Shown here in pieces: positions 6,768 to 24,440 of a stretch of DNA of 24,440 nucleotides. The notes below the pieces were generated by a model. The model searched no databases. It had not been told where the DNA came from and saw nothing but the letters and a program-made list of their open reading frames with translations. The DNA is from a virus (taxonomy: Duplodnaviria; Heunggongvirae; Uroviricota; Caudoviricetes): IMG/VR virus record IMGVR_UViG_2585427750_000026; one strand, written 5' to 3'. A program made the translations under genes and the position numbers. Each line of letters begins with the position of its first letter. Position 1 is the first letter of the stretch.

Positions 6768-7244
6768 ATGAGCATCGCAGCTAAAAATCTGCTTAATCGC
6801 TATTGGGATCGCCGACTACCTGTCGATCCGTTTAAGCTCGCCGCAGCGTGGGGTGCAAGAGTGGAGCCGCTCAGGGAACCAGCGAATGGGTTAAGTGGTT
6901 CAGCCGTAATAGAAAATGGCATACCTTATATTTATTTTAACTCAAATGAACATTACAACCGCCAACGCTTTACTGTAGCGCATGAGCTCGGTCATCATGT
7001 TTTAGGGCATACTCAAGACGGAGAATATCATCGCGATATTGTAGGCAACTACTCAACTGGCATCCGTGATTATCGTGAAATAGAAGCTAACCAGTTTGCT
7101 GCAGAGCTATTGATGCCGGAAGAGGCCATTCGTCAACTAGTGTCGCGTATAGGCGTTGATAGTACATTACGTTTGGCAAACATATTTAACGTTTCTGAGG
7201 CTGCTATGCACTGGCGTCTTAAAGCGTTGGGTATGGCTTACTAA
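6768..7244 (+). CDS. ImmA/IrrE-family (Peptidase_M78 / COG2856-like) zinc metallopeptidase
   Basis: 158 aa with HEXXH (AHELGHHVLGH) followed by the downstream glutamate motif EANQFAAELLMP typical of ImmA/IrrE peptidases. No fused HTH domain. Strong RBS. Confidence 0.75.
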   Translation: MSIAAKNLLNRYWDRRLPVDPFKLAAAWGARVEPLREPANGLSGSAVIENGIPYIYFNSNEHYNRQRFTVAHELGHHVLGHTQDGEYHRDIVGNYSTGIRDYREIEANQFAAELLMPEEAIRQLVSRIGVDSTLRLANIFNVSEAAMHWRLKALGMAY

Positions 7245-7274
7245 TACCCTCTTTAACTTTTTTCAAACCGGTTT

Positions 7275-7311
7275 AAAATCACCATTATTTTATTAATAAT
7301 GGTGATTTTTT
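7275..7311 (+). promoter_or_regulatory. Perfect 15-bp inverted repeat (hairpin) with T-run immediately upstream of the membrane-protein start
   Basis: AAAATCACCATTATT (7275..7289), loop TTATT, AATAATGGTGATTTT (7295..7309), then TT and ATG at 7312. The right arm contains the only SD-like sequence (GGTGA) for the downstream gene. Confidence 0.5.
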
Positions 7312-7932
7312 ATGGCAGATATCGACCTCTCTGGCCAATCTCCGGCTCAGTCTTCCCAGCCATCCAAAACTTCAACCTTTCCACATCCACCTAGCGATGC
7401 CGATCCAGATATTTTGTTACGTAGAGAAGTGCATGATGGCATGGAAAGGAGGGGAATGCGCTTAGTTTTGTCAGCCACCGTACTTTTTTTTGCCATAATG
7501 TTTTTATGGAAAGGTCTGTATTTCGCTCTCGAAGTCGGAAATGGTTTGCTTGCGGCTAAAAGTAGTATTGTTTCAGCGTTGGCACAAAATGATGAAAAGG
7601 TTGTTTGCGAACCTAAAACTAAATGTATTGAGCCTAAACAGCAGACAATGAAACCTACAGAAAAAACTCCCGGCATGTCAACAAAGGGTGATAGAGTAAT
7701 GCCAAACTTATCTACAGATTGGCTTTCTGCAAGTTCGCTAATTGCCATAGTCGCTTTCATCCTTGGTGTTGGCTTGACGTTAATCCTTACCCTACTTAAG
7801 TCCGCTTTTCATCATCCGACTGATAAAAATCTCAATGAGCAAAAAACAACAGATGCGATTGAGTTGGCGACTCCCTTAAGTGAGTTAATCGCGGGTATTA
7901 TTAATTATCTCAAGAGCAAATTTTCTAAATAA
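7312..7932 (+). CDS. Two-transmembrane-helix membrane protein, unknown function (candidate effector)
   Basis: 206 aa with two hydrophobic helices (LVLSATVLFFAIMFLWKGLYFAL and LIAIVAFILGVGLTLILTLL) separated by a hydrophilic loop of about 70 aa containing two Cys. Lower GC than the phage core. Confidence 0.6.
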   Translation: MADIDLSGQSPAQSSQPSKTSTFPHPPSDADPDILLRREVHDGMERRGMRLVLSATVLFFAIMFLWKGLYFALEVGNGLLAAKSSIVSALAQNDEKVVCEPKTKCIEPKQQTMKPTEKTPGMSTKGDRVMPNLSTDWLSASSLIAIVAFILGVGLTLILTLLKSAFHHPTDKNLNEQKTTDAIELATPLSELIAGIINYLKSKFSK

Positions 7933-8141
7933 CGTCCTCTTGGTTATTTTTTAAATCAGCACCATTAGTGCCGGTTTTTTTATGCTGTTTTACTGTAATT
8001 TCCCTGTTTTTAAGCCGTGCATGCAGCAGGTGCATGGTTTTGCATGCGCAGGAAGTGTCCGTTCTGGCCGAGCACCGGCAGAACGGACGCGGATCCAGAA
8101 CGGTCATGCAACTGCATTCAAACCACCCCATGAAGCGGGCG

Positions 8142-8160
8142 GGCGAGGCGGGGAAAGCAC
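8142..8160 (+). other. cos: cos cohesive-end site (19 nt)
   Basis: GGCGAGGCGGGGAAAGCAC matches the 19-nt P2 cohesive end as I recall it, and sits at the expected position between the accessory region and gene Q. Confidence 0.7.
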
Positions 8161-8302
8161 TGCGCGCTGGCGGGGGTGCTGATTTTATTTTTTCAGCGTC
8201 TGAGCGCGTCGTGATGGCGTTTAGATTGTGCGCCGGGGCGTTGGTGTGTCTGCGGGCTGTTTTGTGCGGTGGTGAGCGTGTGAGGGCGTGATGACGGGGG
8301 GT

Positions 8303-17577: not shown

Positions 17578-18363
17578 TTATGAGTGATTTTTATTTGATG
17601 CTTTGTATTCTAAAACCTTCTTATTGGCGTAAAAGAATTTTGTATATGACAGGAATATAACCAGACCTGAAGTGAAATAGACGAGGGATAGTATTAATAA
17701 TGCTTTTTTGTGACTGTTATTATCTTTAATCTCCTGGCTTAACCATTCGGAGTCCTCCTCGTTTAGCTGTAAGAGCTTATTGCAGGCGATTTCAGGAAGT
17801 GTGTCTTTTATAAATACGTTTTGCAGTCTCTTGCAATCGGCAAGGCTATAAGTTTTATTAAATTCAACTGCTTTATTTTTGAAGGATAAAAGAACTTTGT
17901 CACTATAAACATAGTACATCATATTTTTATATGGTATGCCTATGGCATCTCTTACTATAGCGGATTGTTTGTTGTGTATATAACATGCGAAGAGAATATA
18001 AATAATACTGGCCAGAATTACAATTATTGTTTTAATTATGTGTGGTGGTTTTGTTATGTCACCCCAGATGCGAGTAAGGAAAAAATACGATGTTTTTAGT
18101 TTTCCATCAATCAGTCCCTGCTGTATCATTCTCACATTTTCAATGCCTGATACATTGATTCCGTTAATTATTTTAAATAGTTGAATGTCGCGCCACTCGC
18201 GGTCAAGTCTTTTTAATTTTTTGTCTGAATATCCAAAATTGAAATAATGTGCAATAAGCCTCATAAGGTTACTTTTACCAAAGCTAAAAAATGCTAATAC
18301 TGCAAAGCTACAAAGGAAAAAAACGATTAGCCCCCACACATTAGTCACATTATAGCTGACCAT
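17578..18363 (-). CDS. AT-rich membrane protein of unknown function (P2 orf30-like accessory gene)
   Basis: 261 aa on the strand opposite the late operons, with a strong SD (AAGGAG). Markedly AT-rich with Lys/Asn/Ile/Phe-rich composition. Three hydrophobic helices (N-terminal, central IIKTIIVILASIIYILFACYI, C-terminal LILSLVYFTSGLVIFLSY). Confidence 0.6.
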   Translation of the reverse strand: MVSYNVTNVWGLIVFFLCSFAVLAFFSFGKSNLMRLIAHYFNFGYSDKKLKRLDREWRDIQLFKIINGINVSGIENVRMIQQGLIDGKLKTSYFFLTRIWGDITKPPHIIKTIIVILASIIYILFACYIHNKQSAIVRDAIGIPYKNMMYYVYSDKVLLSFKNKAVEFNKTYSLADCKRLQNVFIKDTLPEIACNKLLQLNEEDSEWLSQEIKDNNSHKKALLILSLVYFTSGLVIFLSYTKFFYANKKVLEYKASNKNHS

Positions 18364-20872: not shown

Positions 20873-23200
20873 ATGAGCACAAAATTCAAAACCGTTATCA
20901 CCACTGCTGGTGCAGCAAAGCTGGCAGCGGCAACCGCGCCGGGAGGGCGGAAGGTCAACATTACCACGATGGCCGTCGGGGATGGCGGTGGTAAATTGCC
21001 TGTCCCGGATGCCGGACAGACCGGGCTTATCCACGAAGTCTGGCGACATGCGCTGAACAAAATCAGCCAGGACAAACGAAACAGTAATTATATTATCGCA
21101 GAGCTGGTTATTCCGCCGGAGGTGGGCGGTTTCTGGATGCGTGAGCTTGGCCTGTACGATGATGCTGGAACGTTAATTGCCGTGGCGAACATGGCTGAAA
21201 GTTATAAGCCAGCTCTTGCCGAAGGCTCAGGGCGTTCGCAGACCTGCCGCATGGTCATCATCGTCAGCAGTGTGGCCTCAGTGGCGCTGACCATTGACAC
21301 CACAACGGTGATGGCAACGCAGGATTACGTTGATGACAAAATTGCAGAACATGAACAGTCACGACGTCACCCGGACGCCTCGCTGACCGCCAAAGGTTTT
21401 ACTCAGTTAAGCAGTGCGACCAACAGCACGTCTGAAACACTCGCCGCAACACCAAAAGCGGTAAAAGCAGCATATGACCTTGCTAACGGGAAATACACTG
21501 CACAGGACGCCACCACAGCGCGAAAAGGCCTTGTCCAGCTCAGTAGTGCCACCAACAGCACGTCTGAAACGCTCGCCGCAACACCAAAAGCGGTAAAAGC
21601 AGCATATGACCTTGCTAACGGGAAATACACTGCACAGGACGCCACCACAGCGCGAAAAGGCCTTGTCCAGCTCAGTAGTGCCACCAACAGCACGTCTGAA
21701 ACGCTCGCCGCAACACCAAAAGCGGTAAAAGCAGCATATGACCTTGCTAACGGGAAATACACTGCACAGGACGCCACCACAGCGCGAAAAGGCCTTGTCC
21801 AGCTCAGTAGTGCCACCAACAGCACGTCTGAAACGCTCGCCGCAACACCAAAAGCGGTAAAAGCAGCATATGACCTTGCTAACGGGAAATACACTGCACA
21901 GGACGCCACCACCGCGCGAAAAGGCCTTGTCCAGCTCAGTAGCGCCACCAACAGCGATTCTGAAACGCTTGCGGCAACGCCAAAGGCGGTTAAGACAGCG
22001 TATGACCTTGCTAACGGGAAATACACTGCACAGGATGCCACCACAGCGCGAAAAGGTCTTGTCCAGCTCAGTAGCGCCACCAACAGTGATTCTGAAACGC
22101 TGGCTGCAACACCAAAAGCGGTGAAGTCTGCCTATGACAATGCTGAAAAACGTCTTCAGAAAGATCAGAACGGTGCGGATATTCCTGATAAAGGACGCTT
22201 CCTGAGTAACATTAATGTTTACAGCAAAGGTGAAGTGGATAAGAAAAAGGGAATGCGAAAGTATTCGTTTGCAGCCCCTGCAAATGTCGTTGCCGGGAAG
22301 TGGTATCCCGTTATCTTTCGCCGTGCTGCCAGCCTTTCAGGAGAAATGGCATCCCGCGTCGTTATTTCAACTGGTTGTTATAACGGCGATTATGTAATGA
22401 ATAACTGCGAGTTTAATGGCATGGTTATGCCCGGAGGCTGGACCGATCGTGGTTCATATGCGGCAGGTTATTTCTGGACGTATCAGACTAATGAGCGTTC
22501 AATCCATTCCATTGTTACAAGCCTGAAAGATGATGATGTATGTAGTGTTTTTTATGTTGAAGCCAGAGCTTTCCCTGTGCAAATTCTTGCAGAGGAAGGG
22601 CTAACGGTTATTGTTCCGACAGAGGATTATGTCGTCGGTCAAACGACATATAAGTGGGGGGCAACTAATCCCGCTACAGAAAGCACGAACGCACAGGCTA
22701 TTCTGGATTTTAAAAATGGACGTGGTTATTACTGTTCACATCCATTTATTTCCAGCCTTTCAGGAAATGCTGCAACAGCAACGAAGTTAGCGAACGCAAG
22801 AAATATTAATGGTGTCAGATTTGATGGCTCTGCCGATATAAATATTAATACACTGGTATCCAGAAACCGTGTTAATGCATTAGGTGGGAGCGTAAAGGGG
22901 ACACCAGGTATTCAGATGTATGAGGCATACAACAATGGCTACCCAACAGCCTATGGTAATGTGCTTCATCTCACTGGCGTAACCGCAGTAGGAGAGGGTG
23001 AGTTACTTATTGGCTGGAGTGGAACCAGCGGTGCTCATGCTCCGGCATATATTCGTTCCCGACGAGATACCACAGATGCTAACTGGTCTGGATGGGCGCA
23101 ACTATATACAACTGCTCATAAACCCTCAGCGGGAGATGTTGGTGCATACATAGACTGGCCCCCTGAATCTCCAGACAACCAATATCACTTAAATAAGTGA
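20873..23200 (+). CDS. H: Tail-fibre protein gpH, repeat-expanded and 3-prime interrupted by IS2
   Basis: N-terminus [20 protein letters not shown] is P2 H-like. Contains about 5.7 in-frame copies of a 44-aa repeat. The last 16 codons plus stop (23153..23200; the boundary codon at 23150..23152 straddles the junction) are read from the IS2 terminal repeat, so the native C-terminus is missing. Confidence 0.85.
21392..22135 (+). repeat. Tandem 132-bp (44-codon) in-frame repeat array in H, about 5.7 copies
   Basis: Unit KG(F/L)(T/V)QLSSATNS(T/D)[12 protein letters not shown](A/T/S)[18 protein letters not shown] starting at 21392, 21524, 21656, 21788, 21920 and 22052. Copies 2 and 3 are nucleotide-identical, copy 4 differs by one base, and copies 1, 5 and 6 are more divergent. 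Confidence 0.9.
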
Positions 23201-23607: not shown

Positions 23608-24440
23608 GCTTAGTCAGCCGTTGTCTCCGGGTGTCGCGTGCGCAGTTGCACGTAATTCTCAGACGAACCGATGACTGGAAAGATGGTCGCCGCAGCCGTC
23701 ACTCAGATGATACGGATGTGCTTCTCCGTATACACCATGTTATCGGAGAGCTGCCCACGTATGGTTATCGTCGGGTATGGGCGCTGCTTCGCAGACAGGC
23801 CGAACTTGATGGTATGCCTGCGATCAATGCCAAACGTGTTTACCGGATCATGCGCCAGAATGCGCTGTTGCTTGAGCGAAAAACCGCTGTACCGCCATCG
23901 AAACGGGCACATACTGGCAAAGTGGCCGTGAAAGAAAGCAATCAACGATGGTGCTCTGACGGGTTCGAGTTCCGCTGTGATAACGGAGAAAAACTGCGAG
24001 TCACGTTCGCGCTGGACTGCTGTGACCGTGAGGCACTGCACTGGGCAGTCACTACGGGCGGCTTCGACAGTGAAACAGTACAGGACGTAATGCTGGGAGC
24101 GGTGGAACGCCGCTTCGGCAACGAGCTTCCGGCGTCTCCAGTAGAGTGGCTGACGGATAATGGTTCATGCTACCGGGCTAATGAAACACGGCAGTTTGCC
24201 CGGATGTTGGGGCTTGAACCGAAGAACACGGCGGTGCGGAGTCCGGAGAGTAACGGCATAGCAGAGAGCTTCGTGAAAACGATAAAGCGTGACTACATCA
24301 GTATCATGCCCAAACCAGACGGGTTAACGGCAGCAAAGAACCTTGCAGAGGCGTTCGAGCATTATAACGAATGGCATCCGCATAGTGCACTGGGTTATCG
24401 CTCGCCACGGGAATATCTGCGGCAGCAGGCCAGTAATGGG
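23565..24440 (+). CDS. insD: IS2 transposase OrfB (InsD, DDE catalytic domain), 3-prime partial, in the -1 frame relative to insC
   Basis: Open frame from 23565 to the window end encoding ...[37 protein letters not shown]...[13 protein letters not shown]...[16 protein letters not shown]. Reached by a -1 frameshift at A_AAA_AAG (23559..23565). Absent from the ORF track because no stop lies inside the window. Confidence 0.8.

Follow-up and report, generated by a model that had tools for sequence, protein, structure and literature searches.

Gene H and its interruption by IS2

The window analysed here, a single stretch of 24,440 nt, takes up the end of contig JOQD01000033.1 (GCA_000713895.1) from E. 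coli 3_475_03_S3_C1. It contains a tail fibre gene, gene H of a P2-like prophage (20873–23150, + strand), which runs for 759 codons before meeting an IS2 element and carries matches to PF12571 and PF03406. Directly 5′ of H on the source contig are the Phage_base_V, GPW_gp25, Baseplate_J and Tail_P2_I genes, giving the gene order V-W-J-I-H that is also found in P2, and the first 983 bases of H share 94% DNA identity with P2 H. The baseplate-proximal N-terminal domain (20873–21391, + strand; amino acids 1–173) matches Phage_tail_fib (PF12571) over residues 1–151 with 196.7 bits, against a cut-off of 23. It is 98–100% identical across the 80 IMG/VR loci kept for comparison. The gene is H of a P2-like prophage, with a repeat placed between this N-terminal attachment domain and a variable distal part.

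The distal part (22145–23150, + strand) has a G+C content of 45%, compared with 54–56% upstream, and is the segment cut by IS2. It has no match in Pfam. Two short stretches resemble the Mu fibre protein S, and the last 34 residues before IS2 are Mu S-like. A mosaic distal half of this kind is usual for such fibres.

The left end of IS2 (TAGACTGG..., IS3 family) begins at 23151 and continues to the end of the window at 24440 on the + strand; the source contig terminates inside the element. Its assignment rests on the sequence itself, on IS3/IS2 transposase annotations underlying the matches, and on the rve and HTH_21 domains that the source contig encodes. Comparison with the intact gene of strain 602687 places the break after codon 759 of H, and the read-through ORF stops at 23200 after 16 IS2-encoded residues. 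The residues lost are the last 78 of H, which in relatives end in ...YINGTWYNVAQV, a tip common to P2 H. An intact C-terminal tip followed by gene G, both present in strain 602687, is missing from the window, where H is a truncated member of the P2 gpH-type tail fibres. The protein is already deposited, as KEK75002.1, under the name ‘phage tail fiber repeat family protein’.

A 261-aa ORF on the opposite strand of the window (17581–18363, − strand) has 32–37% G+C within a prophage of 53–60% G+C, and lies between the tail gene S and the baseplate gene V, where P2 has orf30. Neither Pfam nor PADLOC gives a match, and the ORF is called ‘hypothetical protein’ in relatives; a role in cargo or defence is possible. 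The ORFs at approximately 6768–8291 (+ strand), between the replication and portal genes, occupy a variable cargo slot of P2-like phages, which in strain 602687 encodes an ImmA/IrrE metallo-endopeptidase and hypothetical proteins.

Structure of the repeat array

With a score of 1252 (period 132, 5.4 copies, 96% matches, no indels), the one strong tandem array that Tandem Repeats Finder reports, at 21413–22122, outranks every other repeat in the window by a wide margin. Laid out in protein register, the array covers 21392–22144 and is composed of five full 132-bp units of 44 amino acids each and one partial unit, or about 5.7 copies. Counted from 21392, each unit begins in frame 0 of the ORF 20873–23200 (+). 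The array is free of stop codons in the frame of H; the second and third forward frames contain six and 23, respectively. An initial annotation, made from the letters of the window, had described about 5.7 in-frame copies of a 44-aa unit, several of them nearly identical, and had named out-of-frame repeats as the observation that would count against this description. Repeat number, unit length, coordinates and unit identity all proved accurate, and every unit is in frame.

Unit 1 (KGFTQLSS..., 21392–21523, + strand) differs from unit 2 at 10 nt, none of which lies beyond unit position 48. Unit 2 (21524–21655, + strand) combines the 5′ sequence of unit 4 with an A at unit position 126 like that of unit 1, and unit 3 (21656–21787, + strand) is identical to it. 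Unit 4 (21788–21919, + strand) differs from units 2 and 3 at a single nucleotide, having C at unit position 126. Unit 5 (..NSDSET..KTAYD.., 21920–22051, + strand) is 13 nt from unit 2. The partial unit 6 (22052–22144, + strand) was delimited with an HMM of the unit; it keeps 31 of the 44 residues in this layout (28–31 overall) and continues into a linker that is common to the Mu fibre protein S, as seen in the alignment to 8ju3 and 5yvq. The longest stretch of perfect 132-bp periodicity extends over 473 bp (21440–21912), and any read shorter than this cannot fix the copy number.

The array matches the Pfam family Phage_fiber_2 (PF03406) with 392.8 bits, against a cut-off of 22, in six matched stretches. 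It is therefore a catalogued Pfam repeat, located in the proximal shaft of the H protein of a P2-like prophage. Among 22 units from five genes, 80% of the codon differences between units are synonymous, indicating that the Phage_fiber_2 unit is a selected protein module. An antisense ORF (21403–22083, 226 aa) and an ORF at 21870–22124 arise as by-products of the repeat and are not genes. Pfam matches to TPR_20 and ARM_TT21_2nd, in which no single stretch passes, are alanine-rich-repeat noise.

Related prophages with other copy numbers

Strain 602687, whose genome is complete (NZ_CP189657.1), carries a prophage that differs from the window by 7 SNPs over the 21.5 kb outside the array (99.97% identity). 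From unit 4 to the IS2 junction the two sequences show zero differences. The 602687 array has four units (3.7 copies) that correspond base for base to units 1, 4, 5 and 6 of the window, in that order, so that the window array equals the 602687 array plus two extra units (2 and 3). The 602687 H protein is 749 aa long, free of IS2, and retains the natural C-terminus ...YINGTWYNVAQV.

Two further close relatives have undergone independent changes of whole units. PapRG-06-3 has units 1, 5 and 6 only, the second unit being missing, which gives 2.7 copies and a protein of 705 aa with the frame intact. EH01-18-02 has a duplicated unit of the unit 5 type, for 4.7 copies and 793 aa, again with the frame intact. 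Identical flanking units are seen in three prophages whose copy numbers are 2.7, 3.7 and 5.7. Neither the H–IS2 junction nor the window allele with its 5.7 copies is found in any complete E. coli genome.

Downstream of H, the 602687 prophage carries G, then an S1 peptidase gene and the sheath gene. P2 has fun(Z) at the site between G and the sheath gene. This cargo hotspot holds GapS4a/GapS4b in EH01-18-02 (locus L002, 7096–9169) and the S1 peptidase in 602687 (locus L001, 7175–8167), and lies beyond the window since the contig ends in IS2. We also observed that the 602687 H gene (NZ_CP189657.1, 17375–19624; locus L001, 4001–6250) is one intact 749-aa ORF, yet RefSeq gives it as two pseudogene fragments with ‘missing C-terminus’. 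The repeat probably confuses the annotation pipeline there. Automatic annotation can mishandle repeat genes of this sort.

Copy number among P2-like H genes

P2-like H genes differ greatly in repeat number: the range is 0.7–5.7 copies and the mode is 3.7. The comparison called for by the initial annotation revealed clear variation. The 80 closest IMG/VR loci, picked by the N-terminal domain only, include 13 with 1.7 copies, 2 with 2.7, 51 with 3.7, 14 with 4.7 and none with 5.7. In 22 other enterobacterial species the range is 0.7–3.7 copies. An uninterrupted match to 96–100% of the 744-bp array occurs in 14 of 5,426 complete E. coli genomes. When a synthetic ten-unit query was used, arrays of 751–757 bp, equivalent to 5.7 copies, were found in 16 of these genomes, and arrays extending beyond five full units and one partial unit in none of the 5,426. 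The ten-unit query against the protein collection identified 16 P2-type protein clusters with five full units and one partial unit. Another protein recovered by that query, P0151, is cut at its N-terminus and shows seven units or more.

We read the locus in five of the 14 genomes. In each, an intact H of 855–863 aa on a P2-like backbone other than that of the window contains five full units and one partial unit, and the units are diverged, lying 4–24 nt from the window units. No P2-like H gene observed exceeds 5.7 copies, and this maximum is not unique to the window. The array singled out by the initial annotation is real in the deposited sequence, but it is not unusual in kind: it is a Phage_fiber_2 repeat, and its copy number recurs in 16 complete genomes. 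The old, diverged 5.7-copy arrays (hits H152–H167) and the new array of the window stop at the same number, which may be a coincidence or may reflect an upper limit.

In the literature on PF03406 and on repeat variation in P2 H, we did not find copy number in P2-like H as a subject of study, and a paper from 2012 describes the Phage_fiber_2 repeat as little understood. The census (0.7–5.7 units, mode 3.7, none above 5.7 in 5,426 genomes) could seed a small study of fibre-length variation.

Origin of the extra units

The reading we favour, with a probability of about 0.6, is that the window carries a Phage_fiber_2 array in H whose extra units were gained by replication slippage or unequal exchange between sister strands. 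For both processes, 132-bp direct repeats are a textbook substrate, this being an established form of tandem-repeat instability in E. coli. Long and nearly identical 132-bp direct repeats would be expected to allow whole 44-aa units to be gained or lost with the frame kept. The ancestral array in this lineage would have been u1-u4-u5-u6, with 3.7 copies and a 749-aa product. Unit 2 of this 3.7-copy array could then mispair with unit 1, and an exchange between unit positions 48 and 126 would create a hybrid unit with the 5′ part of u4 and the A of u1. A second round of exchange would yield the two extra hybrid units. No Chi sites are present in the window, indicating that Chi is not the driver of this exchange. 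What the compared sequences show directly is the array with its frame and repeat family, how relatives vary, and that the flanking units are identical.

Both the mechanism and the direction of change are what we infer from these comparisons. A gain in the window is favoured over losses elsewhere because the extra units are identical and because the four-unit arrangement is the commonest among relatives. Measured against the 99.97%-identical 3.7-copy prophage, the identity of the units supports a recent gain, in agreement with the recent expansion by slippage or unequal recombination that the initial annotation had proposed. The opposite polarity would make 5.7 copies the older state of the lineage, with units deleted from strain 602687 and from the other relatives that have 3.7 copies. 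In its favour, direct repeats lose a unit at least as readily as they duplicate one, and PapRG-06-3 offers an example of a clean one-unit loss. This polarity appears highly improbable in view of the near-uniformity of the central units, with units 2 and 3 identical and unit 4 differing at 1 nt, when old 5.7-copy arrays lie 4–24 nt from the window units; moreover, 3.7 copies with the same four unit types are the commonest state among relatives, phage P22H4 included. Selection is equally hard to credit as the cause of the gain. On such an account, lengthening of the proximal shaft would have altered fibre reach at the host surface while the gene was still active, before the arrival of IS2. Unit number does vary in intact H genes and the unit is under purifying selection, which together imply that fibres of differing unit number are evidently made and used. 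The H gene in the window, however, is truncated, and an expansion in a gene that was already dead would be neutral. The expansion may postdate the inactivation of H.

An assembly artefact is the competing explanation of most weight, although we consider it distinctly less probable than a real gain. Richter et al. 2018 include the strain (3-475-03_S3_C1, accession JOQD) in their supplement, and its genome was assembled with MaSuRCA 2.3.2 from 100-bp Illumina HiSeq 2000 reads. If the strain in fact has 3.7 (or some other number of) copies, the assembler would have passed twice too often round a loop formed by the sequence that units 1 and 2 have in common. The perfectly periodic 473 bp of the array is spanned by no 100-bp read, and the positions that define the hybrid units, 48 and 126, are 78 nt apart, so that graph words shorter than 79 nt cannot join them. 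Traversing the loop from the common middle through the A and the u4 5′ part back to the common middle three times, rather than once, gives exactly u1-u2-u3-u4, and the nearest complete genome has 3.7 copies. Against this, tandem repeats in short-read assemblies are more commonly collapsed than inflated. UniRef lists an identical 775-aa protein in 5 entries, though these possibly come from one pipeline, and the natural 4.7- and 5.7-copy arrays of complete genomes show that such a count is biologically possible. With 100-bp reads and a 473-bp periodic stretch, sequence alone cannot separate a real gain from an artefact. The array is confirmed for the deposited contig, and the DNA of the strain itself is a separate matter. 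The hazard for short-read assembly raised in the initial annotation therefore carries more weight than its author could have known, the genome having been built from 100-bp reads. Copy numbers of such arrays are not to be trusted in assemblies of this read length.

Fibre length and function

The length of H beyond that of P2 H is almost entirely due to repeat units. The initial annotation was correct in giving 759 aa before IS2 and 669 aa for P2 H, and in attributing the difference to extra copies; P2 has one full and one partial unit. An intact form of the window allele would be 749 + 88 = 837 aa long, as compared with 669 aa in P2.

The contribution of each unit to fibre length was approached through structure. 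An AlphaFold2 monomer model of residues 150–460, built on a 29-sequence alignment, has a mean pLDDT of 51 and a pTM of 0.28, consists entirely of short helices, and is unusable for a trimeric fibre. A sequence search of the PDB identified the unit in the Mu fibre protein S only, where it occurs once, and the Mu cryo-EM paper describes a fibre built at its N-terminus only. With a single unit in Mu S and a model confined to the N-terminus, no length per unit is derivable. Each unit presumably adds a fixed increment to the trimeric shaft.

The existence of intact genes with 0.7–5.7 units makes it plausible, for the P2-like H family, that unit number tunes fibre reach. For the copy in the window, the tuning suggested by the initial annotation cannot apply: IS2 removes the last 78 residues, so no normal fibre can be made from this H and the effect on length is irrelevant. 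A broader idea is that the units act as a fast-changing length setting, with turnover exceeding point mutation and perhaps a ceiling of about five full units, which would adapt fibre reach to the thickness of LPS or capsule. We regard this as a speculative and rather unlikely proposal, suggested by the sequence comparisons.

Overall, the window contains a copy-number allele of a catalogued repeat, attributable to a known mechanism, in a truncated gene of a short-read draft genome. Repeat family, gene and mode of tandem gain and loss were all known before, and the finding in itself matters little.

Comparison with known systems

One close counterpart is P2 gpH (NP_046775.1; 2010 bp, 669 aa), which resembles the window H in its N-terminal domain, in a 44-aa unit that starts at residue 174, and in its place after V, W, J and I. 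P2 gpH has one full and one partial unit (1.7 copies), compared with five and one in the window. It also has a different distal part and is intact, whereas the window H is cut by IS2. The 602687 H and the clusters of 749-aa ‘tail fiber protein’ (P0002, P0006 and others) are identical to the window in units 1, 4, 5 and 6 and in the distal part up to the IS2 junction, but have two units fewer (3.7 copies) and no IS2. The 863-aa H proteins with 5.7 units (e.g. WP_167779668.1 of strain OSUCMP42NDM) match the window in unit number, register and type of N-terminal domain. Their units are mutually diverged and 4–24 nt from those of the window, and both backbone and distal part are different; the divergence of the units indicates that the array in these genes is old.

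Other modes of fibre variation provide a contrast. In a phase-variable contingency locus, changes in repeat number would shift the reading frame or alter promoter spacing, turning the gene on or off; here the unit is 132 bp (44 codons) and alleles with 1.7–5.7 units are all in frame. For switching by an invertible segment, as in Mu G, P1 C and p15B Min, neither an invertase gene nor inverted alternative 3′ ends are present in the window, which is readable up to IS2. In a different genome, NZ_CP122823.1 (locus L007, 5600–6744), a second tail-fibre assembly gene and a partial fibre gene, both inverted, lie 3′ of H and G. This arrangement resembles an invertible segment for fibre switching such as Mu G or P1 C. 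Fibres of EHEC prophages (PMC3368898) contain collagen-like and coiled-coil segments whose length shifts by whole repeat periods between prophage copies. Their repeats are Gly-X-Y triplets and heptads in siphovirus- and podovirus-type fibres, unlike the unit in the window.

The PF03406 repeat itself, with the same KG. motif, is found with other N-terminal domains in lambda Stf/StfR, P1 S, p15B Sc/Sv and Mu S (PDB 5yvq, 8ju3, 9ki1). Mu S has one unit, and the P1/p15B-type fibres are built of 100-aa super-repeats, each comprising two units and a 22-aa linker, with up to 12 units. P1/p15B-type S fibres ranked highest in the ten-unit protein query. Among these, the proteins P0121–P0160, from P1/p15B-type plasmid prophages, carry the super-repeat linker APSSHTHPWNQITGVPTASLTA and cover the query stepwise, at 67, 77, 87 and 97%, indicating that copy number varies there too. 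Repeat number in the P1/p15B-type fibres thus differs stepwise, as it does in P2-like H.
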